Below, piece by piece: positions 9,162 through 27,376 of a stretch of 32,000 nt of DNA. The position numbers and the translations under genes are program-made. The notes under the pieces are model-generated. The model was not told the origin of the DNA and ran no database searches. It saw only the letters and a list, made by a program, of their open reading frames with translations. The stretch covers positions 27,526 to 59,525 of the forward strand of contig JBATUR010000045.1 of the NCBI GenBank assembly GCA_049671305.1, read 5' to 3'. Source of the stretch: Coleofasciculaceae cyanobacterium. GTDB taxonomy: Bacteria > Cyanobacteriota > Cyanobacteriia > Cyanobacteriales > Coleofasciculaceae. Position 1 is the stretch's first letter, and every line of letters starts with the position of its first letter.

Positions 9162-9647
9162 TTAATGTTCCAGTAAAGCTAATTGATATCTTGTTTCTTC
9201 AGTCAAGTTTGATATTCTACATTTTGCTAATGATTCAAGAACACAAACTTCTTGAGGTTTTAAGTAATGATAGCTTTGGGGTGGTCTAAATTCAGACCAT
9301 TGTTCTTTAATGGTTTCTAAATCAATTGGTTTATTAAAAGGAAAACTCTTCTTTAATAAAATTCCATAACCGAGTGTTGCACCTTCGTAATAACTATCGA
9401 AAGTTTTACGATTTATACCTGCTTTATTTTCAACTTTATGCCAAAGTTTACTAGGATTTTCTTCAATAATTCTTTCAACTTCAAACCAACCAAACAAAGC
9501 TTTCTCAGGGCATGAAGCATACACTATAACTATATCATCCTCTCTCAAACGGGGGCGAACTCGCCGAAGTTCAACTGTCTTTGAACCATCAAAAATCTTG
9601 TTGGCGTACTCAGGTTTAATCGATATTAAAAGAATATTGCTTGGCAT
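9162..9647 (-). CDS. Stand-alone ASCH (PUA-like fold) domain protein
   Basis: 161 aa. The N-terminal pattern ISIKPEYANKIFDGSKTVELRR...IVIVYAS.PEKALFGWFEV..I....PSKLW is the classical ASCH/COG4933-type signature. The stop lies 27 nt upstream of the mcrB start. Confidence 0.75.
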   Translation of the reverse strand: MPSNILLISIKPEYANKIFDGSKTVELRRVRPRLREDDIVIVYASCPEKALFGWFEVERIIEENPSKLWHKVENKAGINRKTFDSYYEGATLGYGILLKKSFPFNKPIDLETIKEQWSEFRPPQSYHYLKPQEVCVLESLAKCRISNLTEETRYQLALLEH

Positions 9648-9663
9648 AAGTGTAATGCCTACT

Positions 9664-11802
9664 TTAAGTTTGAACTCCTAAAGCATAAACTTTAGAAAAG
9701 TTTTCTTTAGAGATGTACAAAGTTGTTGGTATTGTCGTTTTATTTTCCAAGATTTCTTGAATTTGAGGTAATGTTACAGGTTTTTTAAACAGCTCAGTAT
9801 CACTAAACTTAATCGCCATAATAACATTATTTGGGTCTTGATCAGCGGCATCAAATATATTTTTTCGTTCAAATATACCTAAATCTCGAAAGCGTCGATA
9901 CAGCTCTTCTGGTTTGCCAATAACAACCTCGTCAAGTCTGGAGCAAGCTCGAATAGCACTAATTCCCCTGTATCCATAACCCTTTTTTTCGTTATCTTGA
10001 CTCACGTACCAGAGAATTCTACCGCATCTACCTGATTTTAATTGTTTTAAACTCTTTTTCGATGTGTAATATACAGCTTCCCTGTTGAGGGCAAGACCTA
10101 TTTTTGTTGCACCGAATAGAGTTTGATTTGCTAATTCTTCATCAAATAATTGTTGTGCCCAGAAGGGTTTAATAGGAATGATGAAAGTTGGTATATCTGC
10201 ATCAATAATCTTTGCCGGGTAGAGAAAACGCTCAATATCAAACATCGTTTGTGTATCTTTAATTGCATCATTTGTATTTAGGTTATTAGCCAGGTGATGA
10301 CAAAAAGTATATTCTTGCCCAAATTTAATCGCTAAATCTTCAAGATGCTGTGAAAGGTTTAGCGCCGTTTCAGCAACTCCTATATTTGCTCTCAACCAAC
10401 CATTTTTAACCTTGATAAAATTATCTTTTTGCATAACTTTAAGAACTTTTTCTTGTATTTTATTATCAGTAATTCTTGTGAATTGTCTATGTTCACGAGC
10501 CGAAGTTAATGCTGCTTGAAAAATTAGATGATGTGTAATAGTTACCGCTAAATGATTATCTCCAACCCTCAACATCGGTATCTCTAGCTCATGTTTTTTG
10601 TGCCTATCATATACCACTAAGACTAGTGGTTGGTTTTCACCCTCTACAATTACAGAACATTCAAATTTATCTGGTTCAGCAAGAAAACGGTGTATTTGCT
10701 GCTGAAAATCAGCTCTATTTTCTCCTTGATTAAAAGACTGAAAGTAGCTGTCTGGGATGGCTTTTTGCCCTATCTGAAGACGTTTTTGCTCTAACTGAGT
10801 ACCCGCTAAACGTACAGGTTGATATTCAGGTTTTTGAAGAAGCTCATCTAATCGAGTAATTAGCTCAACCGGATGAAGAATTGATAATTTGAAGTACTCA
10901 TAAATATCTTCAGCAATATCTAATAAAATACTATTAAAAGTCGTATATATATAAATATTAGCTGCTAAGGTTCTAGCTAGATTGCGGATTTCATATTCGT
11001 CAATTAACGTATTTTTTTCTTGTAGAAATTTCCTTAAATGTTGTTCATTCGTATCTAACTGCTGATGACAAGACAATACAGTAAAATTGTCGGCAAATAG
11101 ACGCATTTCTTTTCTTGCTTTTTCAGTATTTATCTTATCAATTTTATTGAATATTTCACCAGTTATGCACAGTTCTAAATAGGGCTGTAACCAGTCAGCA
11201 ATTAGTAAATGTGCTTCTTCAACTTCCAGTTTACTGTTTATATTTGAGTATAAATGAAAGAAGATTTCCGTATCTACAACTACAAATAGTTTAGATTCAC
11301 GTTGTTGATTGGTAAGAGTAGATAATAAATTAGGATGACCGTAATCGAGCCACCAATAAGTAAGTCTTTTTCCTGGTGTTTTTGCTGGTTTGTCATCTTT
11401 AGCAACAAAACCTAAGCTAGACCAAAAATGCTCTAATTTATAATCTCGACGACAGTTTAGACCAATGCCATTATACTCTTGGGTTATTTCCTTGAGGTGA
11501 TTAAATAAGAGCTTTGCTACTCCTTTTTTGCGCTCTGAAGGATCAACACATAAATGAATAATAGCGATGCGGTTATACTCAGATGAGGGTCTATACAGTA
11601 AATAGCCAACACATTTTGATTGAGGTTCAATAGCTACAATTATTTGGCGAAGTACGGCGTGTCTAAGAAAAGCACCTTCTGGAAAAAAGCCAAGAGTTTT
11701 TTTGTGAGCATCACCTAACTTTATAACTGTTTGTAGGTGAGGAGATTTGTCATCAATTATTTCAATCTTCAACTGTGTCTCTTTAGTCATTTTTTTTTTC
11801 AT
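9664..11802 (-). CDS. Multidomain protein: N-terminal GNAT acetyltransferase, PIN-like segment, unknown central region, C-terminal ASCH/PUA-like domain
   Basis: 712 aa. A GNAT acetyl-CoA motif is present (IHLCVDPSERKKGVAKLLFNHL, then LGF). Residues about 170-320 start like a PIN domain (LFVVVDTEIFFHL). Residues about 535-700 repeat the ASCH-type pattern (FIIPIKPFWAQQLFDE...GRILWYVS...ISAIRA...PEELYRRF). The stop lies 16 nt upstream of the ASCH gene start. Confidence 0.6.
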   Translation of the reverse strand: MKKKMTKETQLKIEIIDDKSPHLQTVIKLGDAHKKTLGFFPEGAFLRHAVLRQIIVAIEPQSKCVGYLLYRPSSEYNRIAIIHLCVDPSERKKGVAKLLFNHLKEITQEYNGIGLNCRRDYKLEHFWSSLGFVAKDDKPAKTPGKRLTYWWLDYGHPNLLSTLTNQQRESKLFVVVDTEIFFHLYSNINSKLEVEEAHLLIADWLQPYLELCITGEIFNKIDKINTEKARKEMRLFADNFTVLSCHQQLDTNEQHLRKFLQEKNTLIDEYEIRNLARTLAANIYIYTTFNSILLDIAEDIYEYFKLSILHPVELITRLDELLQKPEYQPVRLAGTQLEQKRLQIGQKAIPDSYFQSFNQGENRADFQQQIHRFLAEPDKFECSVIVEGENQPLVLVVYDRHKKHELEIPMLRVGDNHLAVTITHHLIFQAALTSAREHRQFTRITDNKIQEKVLKVMQKDNFIKVKNGWLRANIGVAETALNLSQHLEDLAIKFGQEYTFCHHLANNLNTNDAIKDTQTMFDIERFLYPAKIIDADIPTFIIPIKPFWAQQLFDEELANQTLFGATKIGLALNREAVYYTSKKSLKQLKSGRCGRILWYVSQDNEKKGYGYRGISAIRACSRLDEVVIGKPEELYRRFRDLGIFERKNIFDAADQDPNNVIMAIKFSDTELFKKPVTLPQIQEILENKTTIPTTLYISKENFSKVYALGVQT

Positions 11803-12062: not shown

Positions 12063-12578
12063 TTAATCCCACCAGTAGCAAATTACAACGGCATCACAAT
12101 TACGTTGCATATTATCAGCAAGCCCTTCTAACAATCTAGGTCTTAAACCACGCTTAAGCCGCCAAGTATAACTATAATCCTCATTCGTGCTATCACTCAC
12201 ATCTACTGAATCAGCACGCCATTTTTTGCCCAAGTCCATAAGTTGAAAAACCGTTGTATCTTTGTTTTCAGCAAGGATGTATAACGTATCCGCAGGATAG
12301 GGAATGAACCGAATCATACTAGTTTCAGGCATAGGACGATAGTTTGCCATCGCTAGAAGCGTATCGATTACACCGCTAAAACTTAAACCATTTTCATCGG
12401 GTGCAAATATCGGTTTTGTGAATAGAAAGCTAGCCCATAAAGCAGAATGATTAGCAAGATCAGTAATCACTTCTTCGCCATCAAACTCATTAAATTGACG
12501 CTGCCAAACTAGTGCCGCAAAAAGTTCTTGAGGAGAATAAGATTGAGCAATTGATTGAATTTTAGCTAAGTCAAGCAT
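12063..12578 (-). CDS. Hypothetical protein, 171 aa, no recognisable family. First gene of the minus-strand cassette.
   Basis: ATG start preceded by GAGGA. It is co-directional with the 712-aa gene. No motifs I can assign. Confidence 0.6.
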   Translation of the reverse strand: MLDLAKIQSIAQSYSPQELFAALVWQRQFNEFDGEEVITDLANHSALWASFLFTKPIFAPDENGLSFSGVIDTLLAMANYRPMPETSMIRFIPYPADTLYILAENKDTTVFQLMDLGKKWRADSVDVSDSTNEDYSYTWRLKRGLRPRLLEGLADNMQRNCDAVVICYWWD

Positions 12579-12799: not shown

Positions 12800-15640
12800 A
12801 TGATTAACATTAGCGAGTTTCAATCATACCTGCAAGAAATCTGCCGCTACTACGAGCAGTGGTGGACTGAGGTTGCTTTAACTGACACGATCGCAAATCA
12901 ACTTGCTCGCTTCTCATTTGAGCAGATGGTGCAAACTGAGGAGAAGGAGAAGACAGAGGAAAAACCGCAGAAAATCTCGCTGCCAATTTTTCAAGGAATA
13001 CAGACTTACCTTCAATCAGAGCATATCTTATTAGTTGGTTCGCCCGGTGTCGGCAAATCAACGGCTCTTTTACGTTGTTTAATTAGCTTTGCTTCATTGG
13101 AACTTGAGAAACCAGAACCTCGAATTCCCGTGCTGATAAAGTTGAAAATGTATGAGGTTCCTCCACCTAACTCTGAAGATCCTTCGGGGATGTTGGCACT
13201 AATTAGAGCTGCTCTTAAGCCACAACTACGACGACTAAAACTGAAAATTCCAGAAATTCCAAAAGTTGAAGAGCTATTGTTTCAGAAACGACTGATTCTG
13301 CTCTTAGACGGCTTGAACGAGATGCCAGCAGACACACGTCGTACAAAATTGCAAGTATTTCGTGACGAGTGCAAAGATTCCGAAATACCTCTTATCTGCA
13401 CAACAAGAGAAGGTGGCGGTACTCTAGGCATCAACAGGCAATTAGAAATTCAACCGCCTAGCTCTTTAGAGATTGATCGCTTTTTACGAGAATGTATGCC
13501 CGCTCAAGGGCAACAAGTGTTGCAATTGTTGAACCGAGATAACCGAGAGTTGAGCCGCACGCCATTTGTTTTATGGATGCTGTATCAATTGTTTCAGGAG
13601 AAAGGCGTTGTTGTAGAGACTTTGGGAGAGGCATTCCGGCAATTTTTTCAGTCTTTCCAAAAATACAAAGAAGATGCACCTGTTAGCGATGAGCGCCGCG
13701 AAGATTGGAATCTTTGGCTGGAATGTTTGGCATTTACAATGCTAAACTCTCCACCAAATGAGTCTAGTTTGGTAATCTCTAAGGAACGAGCAGAAAAAGT
13801 TCTTGCTGAAAGTGAAAGGTTTGGTCATCTTTATGGTGCTTCATCCCGGATTGAAGAGTTACTTAAGTATCACCTTTTGGAGAGAGTTTCTGATAAGGAA
13901 GTTAGTTTTCATCATCAATTGATTCAGGAATATTATGCGGCAGAATGTCTACTTCCTCAGCTATCTGAACTGATTAAAGAGCAATCAGGTCAGAAATATA
14001 CTCGATTTCAGATAGATTATCTCAACTATTTGAAATGGACAGAAGCGATCGCGATTATGCTTGGGCTACCGGAGATTACTGAAAACCAGGCAGAACGATT
14101 AATAAAGTTGGCGTTGGATGTGGATTTGCAGTTGGGAGCAAGGTTGGCGGGGGAAGTCAAACCAGATTTTCAACAGAAAACAGTTAGCATGATTGCTAAA
14201 CAGCAAGTCTGTAAGAAACTTAGAAGTAGGCTGCTAGGTAAAACACGCTCTGAGGCTGCTGTTCCACTGTTAATCGAATTACTTCAGGATGAAAGTTCCT
14301 CTGTACGTTCCGATGTAGTTTATGCATTAGGACAAATTGGTGGTGAAGCAGCAATTTCAGTATTAATCGAGGCATTGAACGATGATAACTATTCTGTGCG
14401 TTCCGGCGTAATTGATGCATTAGATCAGATTGGTGGAGAATTAGTACGTCCTGGTCTTATTAAAGCTTTAGAAGATGAAGATAAGTACTTAAGCAGAAAA
14501 GCACTTTTATTATTAGCAGAAATAGACTTAGGAGACAACTTTGAAATACTAAGTAATGCAATTTTAGACCCTGATACTAGTTTGGTTGCAGCTATTGCGA
14601 TAACTAGAATTGATTCAAAAAAATCTGCTCCAGTCCTGCTCAAAGCAATTAAAAGTTCAAACTTTCGTGTGCAATTTAGTGCAGCGTTTGCACTGGGAAC
14701 GATGGGATTTGAAATTGCAGTACCAGTTTTACAACAAGCAATTGAAATTATAGATTTATCAGATATTCATAGGATGGTAATTCACCTATTAGCAAGAATT
14801 GACTCAGAACAAGCTGTCTCAGCCATGAAAAAACTGATTCAAGATCCAAATCCTGATAAAAGTAATCTAGTAATCAATACTTTACTGTCAATGGACATCG
14901 AAGAGATTGCCCCAGCTCTGCGTAGAGTCATTCAAGACCCAATAAGTGAATATAAAACGAGCTTTGATCGAAAACTCAACATAGTCAATACAGAAGAAAT
15001 ATCTGACTGCCTTCTTCAAGCTACACAGAATATACGTCCTGATGTAGTAAAAAGTGCAGCTTTTCTTTTGAGAAAATATGGAAATCCTGAAATGCTTTCT
15101 ACCCTTTGGCAGCAGCAAATCAGGCTTTTTCAAGAGGATATTGTTGAAACCATCGCTTCCATCCAATCACGCTGCCAATTCTACAATTACGAAATCGCAC
15201 AATCTTCCCGACCCGCAGCGCCAAAGGCAGAATATTCAAACTCACCACAAGGATTTACTATCATGACTGACAAACAACCAATCATCAACTTTAATCAATC
15301 AAATGCGACTGTAGGTGTCAATTATGCCGCTGAAAATAGCAACATCAAATTTCAGCAAAACGTCAAAAACATCTCCGAACAAGACCTTGCCGAAGCTGCA
15401 AAAAAAATTCAATCTCTCTTAAGTCAACTCGCTCAAACCTATTCCCATACCACCGAGTCCCAACAACAGACCTTCATTCAAAAATTTATAGCACAGCTTG
15501 AATCTACTCCTGACCTCATAAAAGTTATCCTCGCAGGTGGTATCGAATGGCTAAAAATTCTCTGTCCTCCTACTGGAATTCCTATTGAAATGTCACGTAG
15601 CCTCTACGAAGCTGTGCAAAAACGTGACAGTCAAGCGTAA
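12800..15640 (+). CDS. NACHT-family STAND NTPase with C-terminal HEAT (PBS-lyase-type) repeats and an extra tail of about 125 aa
   Basis: 946 aa. Walker A LLVGSPGVGKST starts near nt 13037, and Walker B is LILLLDGLNEM. Repeated HEAT units are present (SSVRSDVVYALGQIGGEAAISVLIEALNDDNYSVRSGVIDALDQIGGE...). A short helical N-terminus of about 75 aa precedes the P-loop. Confidence 0.85.
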   Translation: MINISEFQSYLQEICRYYEQWWTEVALTDTIANQLARFSFEQMVQTEEKEKTEEKPQKISLPIFQGIQTYLQSEHILLVGSPGVGKSTALLRCLISFASLELEKPEPRIPVLIKLKMYEVPPPNSEDPSGMLALIRAALKPQLRRLKLKIPEIPKVEELLFQKRLILLLDGLNEMPADTRRTKLQVFRDECKDSEIPLICTTREGGGTLGINRQLEIQPPSSLEIDRFLRECMPAQGQQVLQLLNRDNRELSRTPFVLWMLYQLFQEKGVVVETLGEAFRQFFQSFQKYKEDAPVSDERREDWNLWLECLAFTMLNSPPNESSLVISKERAEKVLAESERFGHLYGASSRIEELLKYHLLERVSDKEVSFHHQLIQEYYAAECLLPQLSELIKEQSGQKYTRFQIDYLNYLKWTEAIAIMLGLPEITENQAERLIKLALDVDLQLGARLAGEVKPDFQQKTVSMIAKQQVCKKLRSRLLGKTRSEAAVPLLIELLQDESSSVRSDVVYALGQIGGEAAISVLIEALNDDNYSVRSGVIDALDQIGGELVRPGLIKALEDEDKYLSRKALLLLAEIDLGDNFEILSNAILDPDTSLVAAIAITRIDSKKSAPVLLKAIKSSNFRVQFSAAFALGTMGFEIAVPVLQQAIEIIDLSDIHRMVIHLLARIDSEQAVSAMKKLIQDPNPDKSNLVINTLLSMDIEEIAPALRRVIQDPISEYKTSFDRKLNIVNTEEISDCLLQATQNIRPDVVKSAAFLLRKYGNPEMLSTLWQQQIRLFQEDIVETIASIQSRCQFYNYEIAQSSRPAAPKAEYSNSPQGFTIMTDKQPIINFNQSNATVGVNYAAENSNIKFQQNVKNISEQDLAEAAKKIQSLLSQLAQTYSHTTESQQQTFIQKFIAQLESTPDLIKVILAGGIEWLKILCPPTGIPIEMSRSLYEAVQKRDSQA

Positions 15641-18906: not shown

Positions 18907-20673
18907 TTGCAGCAAACACAGACAGTTGCAATTTCTGCCATTGCTGGCATGGGTGGCGTCGGTAAAACCGAACTGGCGCTGCAATACGCCTTGCAATCAT
19001 CACGTGATAAACAATACCCAGGCGGTATTTGCTGGCTAAATGCCCGAAGTTTGAATGTGGGAATTCAAATTGTCAATTTTGCCAGAAAATATTTAAAGTT
19101 GCAGCCTCCCGAAGGTTGGGAATTACTAGATCAGGTAAAGCATTGCTGGCACAATTGGCTGCCGGGAGATGTGCTGATAGTGCTGGATGATCTGACCAAA
19201 TATGAGGATGTGAAGCCTTATTTACCACCAATAGATCTCCGTTTTAAGGTATTGATGACGACGCGGCTACAGTTGGGTGCACCAATTAAACGCTTAGATT
19301 TGGAGGTGCTGACTCCAGAAGCGGCACTGGCTATGTTGAGGTCGTATATTGGGAAAAAACGGGTAGATAGCCAGTTAGATGTTGCTAAAAAACTCTGCAA
19401 ATGGTTGGGTTATTTGCCCTTGGGTTTGGAGTTGGTGGGGCGATATTTGGCTGATGAAGAGGATTTATCCATAGTAGAAATTCAACAACTTTTGGCGCTG
19501 AAATGTGAAGCCTTGGATGAGACTCATCCTGAAATGACAGCAAAGCTAGGTGTTGTGGCTGCCTTTGAGTTGAGTTGGCAGGAATTGGACGAAAATGCCC
19601 AAGTTTTAGGTTATCTGCTTTCTTTGTTTGCCTCTGCGCCCATTCCCTGGTCGTTGGTGGAAAGTGCCACAGACTTTTGGCAAGAATACCAAACCCACCA
19701 GGGAATAAATTCCCTGGCTGATAGCGAAAGTCCGTTAAAACGGACTGAAGACACTGATGCTAGTCGGTTTAAACCGACTTCCGCTATTAGCCCGGAACTT
19801 AAGTTCCGGGCGGGGAAAGCGACTATCCCCGATTTAAAGAAAGCCCGACGCGCTTTGCTAAAGTTCAACCTAATTAAGCGCACCAAGAAAGACACCTACG
19901 AGTTACACCAACTAATTCGAGAATTCTTTTTGGATAAACGGGAAGAGTCCGCCGAGGCAGAGGAACTGAAACTGGCATTTTGTCGGGCAATGGTAGCTGA
20001 GGCAAAGACAATTCCTGCGACACCGACGCTTAAAGATATTGCAGCAGTGAGATTGGCTATTCCTCACATTGGCGAAGCTGCCACTACTCAGAAAGCTTGG
20101 TTGGATGATGAGGATTTAATCAGACCCTTTGTTGGTTTGGGGCGATTCTACGAAGGACAAGGAGACTACAAGCAAGCCGAACCCTGGCGTGAGCAATGCT
20201 TGTCATTAACTAAAGCACGCTTGGGAGAAAACCATCCTGACGTGGCAACCAGTATCAACAATTTGGCAGAACTCTACTATTATCAAGGACGCTACACAGA
20301 AGCAGAACCTTTGTATCTGCAAGCTTTGGAGTGGAGGCAACGGAATCTGGGAGAAAACCATTCTGATGTAGCAGAAAGTCTCAACAATTTGGCAGCACTC
20401 TACTATTCTCAAAGACGCTACACGGAAGCAGAACCATTGTTTCTGCAAGCATTAGAGTTGAGGCAACGTCTGCTGGGAGAAAACCATCCCGATGTAGCAC
20501 TCAGTCTCAACAATTTGGCATATCTCTACTCTTCTCAAGGACGCTACAGTGAAGCTGAACCATTGTTAGAGCAAGCTTTAGAGTTGAGTGAGCGAGTGTT
20601 GGGGCTTAATCATCCTAATACTGTTAGCTACCGTAAGAATCTGCAAAGACTGCGTGCTCAGCAGGTTGATTGA
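18907..20673 (+). CDS. NB-ARC (AP-ATPase-type) STAND NTPase with C-terminal TPR repeats. The 5' boundary is unreliable because homology-like sequence continues upstream to 18793.
   Basis: P-loop AIAGMGGVGKTELALQYA and Walker B VLIVLDDL are present. There are four or more kinesin-light-chain-type TPRs (NNLAELYYYQGRYTEAEPLYLQALE...). The track start is a TTG. The canonical pre-P-loop motif NLPPSGISQFVGREDVL is encoded upstream of it at 18838-18888 in the same frame. Confidence 0.85.
   Translation: MQQTQTVAISAIAGMGGVGKTELALQYALQSSRDKQYPGGICWLNARSLNVGIQIVNFARKYLKLQPPEGWELLDQVKHCWHNWLPGDVLIVLDDLTKYEDVKPYLPPIDLRFKVLMTTRLQLGAPIKRLDLEVLTPEAALAMLRSYIGKKRVDSQLDVAKKLCKWLGYLPLGLELVGRYLADEEDLSIVEIQQLLALKCEALDETHPEMTAKLGVVAAFELSWQELDENAQVLGYLLSLFASAPIPWSLVESATDFWQEYQTHQGINSLADSESPLKRTEDTDASRFKPTSAISPELKFRAGKATIPDLKKARRALLKFNLIKRTKKDTYELHQLIREFFLDKREESAEAEELKLAFCRAMVAEAKTIPATPTLKDIAAVRLAIPHIGEAATTQKAWLDDEDLIRPFVGLGRFYEGQGDYKQAEPWREQCLSLTKARLGENHPDVATSINNLAELYYYQGRYTEAEPLYLQALEWRQRNLGENHSDVAESLNNLAALYYSQRRYTEAEPLFLQALELRQRLLGENHPDVALSLNNLAYLYSSQGRYSEAEPLLEQALELSERVLGLNHPNTVSYRKNLQRLRAQQVD
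19698..19832. repeat. Nested-hairpin small dispersed repeat inserted in frame inside the NB-ARC-TPR coding sequence
   Basis: Five consecutive perfect hairpins were read: CCAGGGAATAAATTCCCTGG, AGTCCGTTAAAACGGACT, AGTCGGTTTAAACCGACT, CCGGAACTTAAGTTCCGG and CGGGGA..TCCCCG. The connector CCGCTATTAGC is the reverse complement of the core of the connector GTCTAATAGCTAAAG in the 17.6-kb repeat. The segment encodes the low-complexity stretch QGINSLADSESPLKRTEDTDASRFKPTSAISPELKFRAGKATIP. Confidence 0.75.
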
Positions 20674-27302: not shown

Positions 27303-27376
27303 CGGGGCGTAGCGCAGCTTGGTAGCGCACCACTTTGGGGTAGTGGGGGTCGTGGGTTCAAATCCCGCCGCTCCGA
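27303..27376 (+). tRNA. tRNA-Pro, anticodon GGG
   Basis: Hand-folded cloverleaf. Acceptor CGGGGCG/CGCTCCG (one G-U pair). D arm GCGC-AGCTTGGTA-GCGC. Anticodon arm CCACT-TTGGGGT-AGTGG (anticodon GGG with G37). T arm GTGGG-TTCAAAT-CCCGC. Discriminator A. CCA is not encoded. The track ORF 27195-27380 is spurious. Confidence 0.9.

Follow-up and report, generated by a model that had tools for sequence, protein, structure and literature searches.

Why should one polypeptide join an acetyltransferase fold, a nuclease-like domain and an ASCH-like barrel, and why should its gene stand at the head of an operon for a modification-dependent nuclease? The question is raised by a 712-amino-acid (712-aa) protein encoded on the reverse strand of a 32,000-nucleotide stretch of contig JBATUR010000045.1 from a Coleofasciculaceae cyanobacterium (the whole stretch is called the window below). 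A first-pass annotation had dealt with the domain architecture of the protein. The most informative context, absent from that annotation, is a conserved operon with the genes of a stand-alone ASCH protein of 161 aa (ASCH161), McrB and McrC. We propose that the locus is a conflict module made of a nucleic-acid writer and its eraser, in which the nuclease output would have shifted from the PIN domain of the large protein to McrBC in the four-gene cassette; we give this reading a probability of roughly 0.45.

Domains of the 712-aa protein

The gene is a single open reading frame (ORF; Table 1). Among the candidates scored in a word-seeded search, 481 proteins had an expect value (E) of 1e-3 or lower; this is not a chance ORF but a real gene. 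The best 120 matches listed ranged from E=0 to 5e-196 and were mostly full length, at about 700 aa. The family profile, searched exhaustively, matched 2905 representative clusters at E≤1e-3; at E≤1e-30 the number was 1283 (clusters of 50% identity), and alignments of the best 150 nearly all ran from end to end. Since homologues begin at about residue 5 (MTKETQ...), and the closest relative among the matches listed (93% identity) has 708 aa, the true start may be the alternative ATG given in Table 1.

An AlphaFold2 (AF2) model of the whole protein (predicted local distance difference test score, pLDDT, 82) contained four domains, with low-confidence linkers at residues 158-167 and 325-331. The three motifs quoted in the first-pass annotation were found in place: RKKGVAKLL spans residues 91-99, LFVVVDTEIF residues 172-181 and VLVVYDRHKK...FQAAL residues 394-432. 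Sequence searches of PDB chains with the protein, the family profile and a domain-3 profile gave marginal GNAT matches or none, and Foldseek against BFVD gave nothing beyond generic GNAT and small ASCH-like matches.

Domain 1 had been called a GNAT, and Pfam models above their gathering cut-offs agree (E 4e-8): PF00583 (Acetyltransf_1) scored 34 bits against a cut-off of 20.7, PF13508 (Acetyltransf_7) 32.7 bits against 27, and PF13673 (Acetyltransf_10) 27.9 against 23.6. All 41 of the 41 aligned homologues were matched by Pfam GNAT models in this domain. The acetyl-coenzyme A (acetyl-CoA) loop is intact in the window protein. Across 251 full-length members, its columns held Arg in 79% and Gln in 17% at R91, Gly in 85% at G94 and Ala in 74% at A96. 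The putative active-site residues H83, C85, C117, R118, D120 and W127 were 96-99% conserved in these members and invariant in 74 loci. Domain 1, hereafter GNAT1, looks like a working acetyltransferase, and it is the sole domain to keep the CoA motif. When the whole-protein model was compared with known structures by Foldseek, without query ranges, the closest GNATs were Ard1, Naa50 and RimI, which are protein N-alpha-acetyltransferases. Four loci of a Nostoc/Anabaena sub-clade (L008, L011, L012 and L021) carry Q-x-x-K in place of the loop sequence R-x-x-G (G94K), together with D290K in the PIN domain; the putative writer may be altered too in this sub-clade.

The segment at about residues 340-520 had tentatively been read as a degenerate second GNAT, and modelling bears this out. 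Domain 3 had no Pfam match and no PDB sequence match. Its AF2 model, built from an alignment of 22 sequences (A2; pLDDT 84, predicted template modelling score 0.83), shows the element order b1-a1-a2-b2-b3-b4-a3-b5-a4-b6-b7, which is that of a canonical GNAT. The best 50 PDB matches listed by Foldseek were all GNATs (E 6e-5 to 4e-4; template modelling (TM) scores 0.45-0.64), with the AtaT structures 6gtr and 6ajm among them. The CoA motif A is degenerate, reading R412-V-G-D-N-H-L-A-V-T421 where Q/RxxGxG/A is expected. R412 is invariant, and T421 (Thr in 84%) pairs in the alignment with the motif Gly of a Rhodococcus GNAT. Domain 3 thus has a GNAT fold but probably no acetyltransferase activity, and the asterisk in the architecture GNAT-PIN-GNAT*-ASCH-like marks this degeneracy. 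Comparison of domain 1 with domain 3 by hhalign gave a probability of 1% and no significant internal duplication, so the two domains are not recent duplicates.

Residues from about 535 to 700 had been said to mirror the neighbouring 161-aa ASCH protein. This was upheld by hhalign, which aligned domain 4 with the ASCH161 family at a probability of 95.4% (E 2e-8), and by Foldseek with the whole-protein model, where the top PDB matches were ZmASCH from Zymomonas (5guq, 5y6c and 5y6b; E 3e-8, target TM 0.76-0.82). The GxKxxExR octapeptide as such was not found in domain 4. Its position, after F553-D554, is occupied by an insertion of about 20 residues (555-574), and Y578 pairs in hhalign with the catalytic Glu. 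The pocket residues D554, E575, Y579, R595, W598 and Y599 were invariant in 74 loci, and G564, K567 and E575 might stand in for the missing ASCH residues.

For residues of about 170-320 a PIN-like nuclease had been suggested. The fold is supported by the homologues, of which 11 out of 41 matched PIN_3 (best E 2e-6) and one out of 41 matched PF01850, and by hhalign, in which the family profile of domain 2 aligned with residues 7-132 of a Rhodococcus PDC-M11A protein (92%, E 5e-7). The window protein itself had no Pfam PIN match at E≤1. The acidic positions, whose conservation had been proposed as a check on the assignment and which we mapped by motif and alignment rather than by coordinates, hold up only in part: the third canonical acid (T288-x-D290) is Asp in 68% of the family and Asn in the window protein. 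N290 suggests that the PIN domain of the window protein is at best weakened.

A four-gene cassette with ASCH161, McrB and McrC

An ASCH161 homologue was encoded directly downstream of the 712-aa gene in 78 of 80 genome loci, from at least eight phyla. One of the two exceptions is a contig end and the other an apparent deletion. About 60 of the loci are cyanobacterial (filamentous and other); the remainder are from Verrucomicrobia, Planctomycetes, Ca. Scalindua, Elusimicrobia, Acidobacteria, deltaproteobacteria, Firmicutes and Gallionella. The full order of 712-aa protein, ASCH, McrB and McrC was found in 58 of the 80 genome loci, all of them cyanobacterial, and in at least 17 metagenome loci too; the close spacing of the four genes in the window is given in Table 1. 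Outside the McrBC-linked clade the pair sits among unrelated genes. The pair is therefore the core unit, which cyanobacteria have elaborated by linking it to McrBC. Over 45 complete cassettes, matrices of pairwise identity for the four genes were correlated with r of 0.84-0.91, which is compatible with inheritance as one unit.

In the locus of a Scytonema hyalinum metagenome-assembled genome (L033, 8007-11092), the large gene ends at about residue 632 and runs straight into McrC, with the ASCH-like end, ASCH161 and McrB gone; the loss is either natural or an artefact of assembly.

ASCH161 matched the Pfam ASCH model PF04266 with 28.2 bits against a cut-off of 21.2 (E 3e-6) and carries the complete octapeptide G21-S-K23-T-V-E26-L-R28, plus Y14. 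Among 79 sequences, K23, E26 and R28 were 98% conserved and Y14 88%. Nineteen ASCH proteins take N4-acetylcytidine (ac4C) off tRNA, a K/E dyad being essential for this in TthASCH, EOLA1 and TRIP4, and in the GKER subgroup the residues Y14, K23, E26 and R28 of TthASCH matter for deacetylation (bioRxiv 10.64898/2026.02.27.708502). Because these catalytic residues are conserved, ASCH161 looks like a competent N-acyl-cytosine amidohydrolase. It shares the octapeptide residues K23, E26 and R28, as well as Y14, with the ASCH N4-acetylcytidine amidohydrolases (E. coli YqfB; TthASCH, EOLA1 and the ASCH domain of TRIP4, these three of the GKER subgroup), but it belongs to another subfamily (PDC-M11B) with a C-terminal extension, and its gene is not solitary but accompanied by those of a GNAT-PIN protein and McrBC.

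The McrB of the window begins with an N-terminal domain of 250 aa, to which the AAA+ core (GPPGTGKT, DEINR and MNTADRS) is directly joined. McrC contains the sequence IDLVLLD...VLDTKYK, which fits the PD-(D/E)xK motif. McrB's N-terminal domain had no Pfam match and no PDB sequence match, and no modified-DNA reader was recognised in it. The window proteins resemble canonical McrBC (EcoKMcrBC) and the EVE-McrB and YTH-McrB fusions in an AAA+ McrB with Walker A, Walker B and NxxD motifs and in a PD-(D/E)xK-compatible McrC. They differ in that this McrB has no recognised fused reader and is accompanied by two ASCH-fold domains from two upstream genes. An identity with CoCoNuT systems, which have an NxD McrB, was considered and rejected, the window McrB having NTAD and belonging to the NxxD branch.

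The cassette McrBs were compared with McrBs that share the N-terminal domain but lack the pair. All 75 cassette McrBs (58 genome and 17 metagenome loci) are at most 582 aa long and consist of the N-terminal domain and AAA+. By contrast, out of 14 pair-less McrBs from a metagenome scan with the N-terminal domain that had McrC next to them and at least 2.5 kb visible upstream, all 14 were 653-1151 aa long. The long McrBs have an extra segment between the N-terminal domain and the AAA+ core. In L114 this segment is an EVE domain (E 2e-11), in L101, L121 and L125 it is DUF2461, and in the others it matched no family. No homology between these inserts and ASCH161 or any of the domains of the 712-aa protein could be detected, and the literature on DUF2461 was uninformative. 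McrBs that lack a fused PUA-like reader thus have two PUA-like ASCH folds encoded just upstream of them. Long McrB homologues were seen on the metagenome contigs L101, L108, L112-L115, L117-L119, L121-L125, L142 and L146, and two further contigs (L130 and L141) encode proteins of about 470-530 aa with the McrB N-terminal domain and no AAA+ match.

The presence of McrBC coincides with decay of the PIN active site. Of 19 McrBC-free loci, 18 had kept the whole core triad D177/E216/D290, whereas only 12 of 55 McrBC-linked loci retained it (Fisher's exact test, p 2e-8, uncorrected for phylogeny), and at least seven different substitutions were involved. D290 was replaced by Asn in 18 loci, including that of the window, by Glu in seven, Lys in four, His in two and Tyr in one; D177A was found in eight loci, and E216 was changed to Lys, Gln or Asp. 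PIN was also the least conserved domain in the linked set (0.45, against 0.52-0.56 for the others), which was not so in the unlinked set. Because of N290 and the wide degradation of the PIN core in the McrBC-linked clade, the PIN domain is probably not a working nuclease in the window protein.

The cassette also occurs on a plasmid. Plasmid pCAL6303.01 of Calothrix sp. PCC 6303 (L082; NC_019727.1, 37113-44817) carries the same four genes, with the large protein labelled 'GNAT family N-acetyltransferase' and its partner 'hypothetical protein' in RefSeq. This copy adjoins genes for a Dcm DNA cytosine methyltransferase and an Eco29kI-family restriction endonuclease. The presence of a cytosine-methylating restriction-modification system beside it implies that the McrBC of this plasmid does not target that methylation. 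A plasmid search with ASCH161 found many ASCH genes beside GNAT or EVE genes. The scan of viral contigs gave one distant relative, a 680-aa protein with 32% identity (L084, 1-4269; IMG/VR UViG_2517572100_000008), and the 712-aa family is therefore not phage-borne. Before the gene of the distant relative lies an ORF of 556 aa that is P-loop ATPase-like; after it come a gene for a non-orthologous ASCH protein of 143 aa (GIKDIENR) and then transposase-like genes, and the viral assignment of this contig looks doubtful.

The guanine plus cytosine (GC) fraction in the window is 0.34 for the 712-aa gene, 0.33 for ASCH, 0.42 for McrB and 0.455 for McrC. The 712-aa gene was lower in GC than McrB in 55 out of 55 cassettes (L001-L071), with a mean difference of 3.5 points. 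This gap could stem from separate origins, from bias in codons or amino acids, or from tuning of expression.

Further genes of the window are included in Table 1. The 171-aa ORF directly upstream of the 712-aa gene had no Pfam, NCBIfam or PADLOC match and lay beside the cassette in none of the 80 loci. Two STAND-type NTPases are encoded on the opposite strand, and the region could be a defence island of small size. Locus L071 likewise has a related NACHT-HEAT gene close to its cassette. Promoter and terminator scans gave counts equal to those in shuffled sequence and were uninformative.

Table 1. Features of the window, with positions counted from its first nucleotide; residue numbers are those of the 712-aa protein
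Feature	Position	Strand	Evidence and remarks
712-aa GNAT-PIN-GNAT*-ASCH-like protein	9664..11802	(-)	uninterrupted 712-codon ORF; stop 9664-9666; alternative start ATG at 11790
Domain 1, residues 10-157, GNAT with intact acetyl-CoA loop R91-K-K-G94-V-A96	11332..11775	(-)	Pfam
Domain 2, residues 168-324, PIN-like; acidic positions D177, E216, N290, E313	10831..11301	(-)	Pfam matches of homologues; hhalign
Domain 3, residues 333-532, GNAT fold (about 337-475) and helical tail (480-530)	10207..10806	(-)	AF2; Foldseek
Domain 4, residues 535-712, ASCH/PUA-like beta-barrel	9667..10200	(-)	Foldseek; hhalign
Stand-alone ASCH protein, 161 aa (ASCH161, PDC-M11B)	9162..9647	(-)	begins 16 nt past the end of the 712-aa gene
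McrB-like AAA+ GTPase, 522 aa	7566..9134	(-)	Pfam AAA_5 E 4e-21; NCBIfam McrB E 2e-45; begins 27 nt past ASCH
McrC endonuclease subunit, 412 aa	6337..7575	(-)	Pfam PF10117 E 8e-37; NCBIfam McrC E 2e-27; 10-nt overlap with McrB stop
171-aa ORF	12063-12578	(-)	260-nt gap to the 712-aa gene
946-aa NACHT and HEAT-repeat protein, STAND-type NTPase	12800-15640	(+)	weak PADLOC matches HEAT-ARM_XIII and PDC-M14B
588-aa NB-ARC and TPR protein, STAND-type NTPase	18907-20673	(+)	
tRNA gene	27303-27376	(+)	only Rfam match in the window, 59.7 bits

Relation to PDC-M11 and the PIN-GNAT-EVE proteins

PIN-GNAT-EVE proteins accompanied by an ASCH gene are known from purely computational descriptions (Bell 2020, BMC Biol, PMC7641849, and Iyer 2013, NAR, as cited there). 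Base acetylation and toxin-antitoxin-like roles were proposed for these modules, with the remark that none of them had been characterised (PMC7641849). In our searches, PADLOC profiles for PDC-M11A matched the 712-aa protein at residues 506-683 alone (E 3e-8 and 1e-7), and the PDC-M11B profile matched ASCH161 with E 9e-37. One homologue (L065) matched PDC-M11A at both the PIN and the C-terminal regions. A 493-aa protein from Rhodococcus is a full-length PDC-M11A (E 3e-152) with Pfam matches to PIN_3 and GNAT and a PDC-M11B partner, and hhalign aligned domains 2, 3 and 4 with it in order, at its residues 7-132 (92%, E 5e-7), 163-294 (27%, E 7e-4) and 336-485 (96%, E 1e-8). The PIN and C-terminal domains are thus demonstrably homologous to those of the Rhodococcus protein, and the 712-aa protein is an N-terminally extended branch of the PIN-GNAT-EVE plus ASCH class; PDC-M11 is listed in PADLOC as a candidate system. 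The nucleic-acid effector suggested in the first-pass annotation, with writer, nuclease-like module and reader or eraser in a single chain, fits this class as a general idea, but the architecture is less novel than had been assumed.

Residues 168-712 repeat the order PIN, GNAT, PUA-like of the known class, with an ASCH gene beside them, and the distribution is likewise patchy and mobile, plasmids included. The window protein departs from the class in its additional N-terminal GNAT, which has the only intact CoA motif, and in its internal GNAT, which is degenerate, without a Pfam match and with Thr for the motif-A Gly. Its C-terminal domain is more ASCH-like than EVE-like, and its gene is part of an McrBC operon in cyanobacteria, in contrast to the type I restriction-modification or AAA_17 associations described for the class.

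A PDC-M11 variant on a plasmid of Pseudomonas sp. CIP-10 (L081, 3377-6009) encodes, in this order, an AAA_17 ATPase, a 352-aa PDC-M11A, an ASCH protein and a separate 198-aa GNAT. The 352-aa protein is of the GNAT-EVE type and had no Pfam GNAT match, and the 198-aa GNAT is canonical. The separate GNAT may be an unfused counterpart of the extra GNAT found in the window protein. Domain 1 and the 198-aa protein were not significantly similar by hhalign (probability 10%), and we therefore do not propose that gene as the source of the N-terminal GNAT.

GNAT or PUA partners go unmentioned in the CoCoNuT census of McrBC systems. Three features appear to be undescribed in the literature searched: the GNAT-PIN-GNAT*-ASCH architecture, the fixed operon that joins it to a reader-less McrBC in many cyanobacteria, and PIN decay within this operon.

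A proposed writer and eraser, and competing explanations

The analysis shows how the domains are arranged, which family they belong to, how the genes are linked and which residues are kept or lost; from this we infer the substrate, chemistry, complex and role in defence that follow. The C-terminal ASCH-like barrel would bind nucleic acid and inspect a flipped-out base, and GNAT1 would move an acetyl group from acetyl-CoA onto the nucleic acid, the likeliest acceptor being an exocyclic amine such as cytosine N4. ASCH161 would reverse or edit the mark, serving as antidote, self-protection or reset in the manner of DarG. The response would be executed by a nuclease, PIN in the stand-alone two-gene modules and McrBC in the four-gene cyanobacterial cassette, where McrB, having no reader of its own, would depend on the two ASCH-fold domains encoded upstream. 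During the evolution of this branch the extra N-terminal GNAT would have taken over as the intact acetyl-CoA site, and the ancestral internal GNAT would have decayed into a scaffold.

DarT-DarG, one system with which this scheme can be compared, is a phage defence composed of a DNA ADP-ribosyltransferase toxin and a macrodomain antitoxin that removes the mark. The likeness would lie in the logic of a nucleic-acid writer paired with an eraser of the same chemistry; the folds and the chemistry are unrelated, and for the window system writing and erasing are proposals. Another comparison is with BapA, an ASCH-like hydrolase that removes glucose from glucosyl-5-hydroxymethylcytosine, is encoded in the same operon as the modification-dependent effector Brig3 and widens the range of that anti-phage effector (bioRxiv 10.64898/2026.02.25.707755). 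Both loci, likened here by description, place an ASCH-fold enzyme in an operon with a modification-dependent effector, which is anti-phage in the case of Brig3. The effector of the window system would be McrBC or PIN instead of a 5-hydroxymethylcytosine DNA glycosylase, and a putative GNAT writer is present.

Several points weigh against our proposal. The precedent for deacetylation by ASCH proteins covers RNA and nucleosides, not DNA, and concerns other subfamilies than that of ASCH161. A protein is a possible substrate of GNAT1, because the closest GNAT structures are N-alpha-acetyltransferases, and McrB's own N-terminal domain could be a reader. The statistic for loss of the PIN triad ignores phylogeny, and all of the linked loci are cyanobacterial; the correlation between the identity matrices could likewise merely reflect the species phylogeny. 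The lower GC of the 712-aa and ASCH genes relative to McrBC, seen in 55 of 55 cassettes, might point to separate histories. Finally, PDC-M11 is a candidate system, and no experimental report on it or on the PIN-GNAT-EVE class was found in the literature searched.

Among the competing explanations, one that we regard as unlikely turns the 712-aa protein and ASCH161 into modified-base readers that serve McrBC in trans, with the GNAT acetylating a protein (McrB or McrC, the 712-aa protein itself or a phage protein) as a switch. It would accommodate the resemblance of the whole model to protein N-terminal acetyltransferases and the absence from cassette McrBs of the EVE or DUF2461 insert of their pair-less relatives, and PUA-like domains are the commonest specificity modules of McrB (Bell 2020, PMC7641849; EcoSal review). 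However, it leaves unexplained both the McrBC-free two-gene modules with intact PIN in many phyla and the complete hydrolase catalytic set of ASCH161, which goes beyond a binding pocket. Quite unlikely, in our estimate, is an arrangement like that of BapA and Brig3, in which the ASCH hydrolase, possibly helped by the ASCH-like domain, strips blocking groups off hypermodified phage DNA for McrBC or PIN, and the GNAT is an auxiliary that, for example, neutralises amine-bearing hypermodifications. BapA itself, the intact octapeptide of ASCH161 and the dependence of McrBC on modification are in keeping with such unmasking, but it gives no necessary role to a strictly conserved and apparently active GNAT1. 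When one operon encodes both writer and eraser of the same chemistry, an opposing pair is the simpler reading, and the literature searched contains no N-acyl DNA modification of cyanophages tied to this system.

The first-pass annotation had drawn an analogy with GNAT toxins such as TacT and AtaT. Taken as an explanation of the whole locus, GNAT1 would acetylate aminoacyl-tRNA, PIN would cut RNA, ASCH161 would be the antitoxin and McrBC would be there through mere clustering in an island. Both GNAT and PIN domains are common among toxins, and a toxin-antitoxin-like role with aminoacyl-tRNA targets was proposed for GNAT-EVE proteins (Bell 2020, PMC7641849). The window protein has the GNAT fold and the predicted use of acetyl-CoA in common with TacT, AtaT and ItaT, but it is a multi-domain protein with an ASCH partner, and the analogy gained no specific support: no specific similarity and no NCBIfam or Pfam toxin-GNAT match was found, the GNAT structures closest to the whole model are N-alpha-acetyltransferases, and no gene for an antitoxin of the ribbon-helix-helix (RHH)/DUF1778 or another DNA-binding type is present, the neighbours being ASCH, McrB and the 171-aa ORF without a family match. 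The AtaT structures 6gtr and 6ajm are indeed neighbours of the internal GNAT, but this is a likeness of generic GNAT fold and concerns the degenerate domain 3. Clustering also leaves open why the gene order is fixed in 58 genomes, why PIN decays only in the company of McrBC and why McrB has no reader, and we consider a classical toxin very unlikely. Extremely unlikely is a housekeeping pair that writes and erases an ac4C-like mark on cellular tRNA or rRNA without any role in conflict, although ASCH proteins do deacetylate tRNA ac4C (bioRxiv 10.64898/2026.02.27.708502) and PUA-like domains are common in RNA-modification enzymes (PMC7641849). The patchy spread over many phyla with unrelated flanks, the occurrence on plasmids beside restriction-modification genes, a GC content below that of the surroundings, the fusion to a PIN nuclease and the McrBC operon all speak against it, and the Pfam scan gave no similarity to the GNAT of TmcA/NAT10. 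These last two explanations fit the context poorly, there being no RHH antitoxin and no specific family match, and the module being mobile, patchy and lower in GC than its surroundings.

The proposed conflict module of writer and eraser can be given a more specific form, which we regard as a long shot: GNAT1, guided by the ASCH-like barrel, would acetylate invading DNA at an exocyclic amine such as cytosine N4, the reader-less McrBC would be brought to the acetyl mark by the two ASCH-fold domains and would cut there, and ASCH161 would clear the mark from host DNA. If this restriction by marking and cutting were true, it would be the first enzymatic acetylation of a DNA base used in immunity, and a type IV enzyme would be given its target modification by its operon partners.

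The prediction of base acetylation by PIN-GNAT-EVE/ASCH modules is more than 10 years old, and the branch described here, a large one with its 1283 clusters at E≤1e-30, makes it directly testable. It offers three handles: the putative writer GNAT1 against the putative eraser ASCH161, the decay of PIN where McrBC joins the pair, and McrBs without an insert against their EVE-bearing sisters. The organisation of the cassette suggests that type IV restriction enzymes may acquire their specificity in trans, and filamentous cyanobacteria would gain in the cassette a further defence candidate, widespread and so far unannotated.

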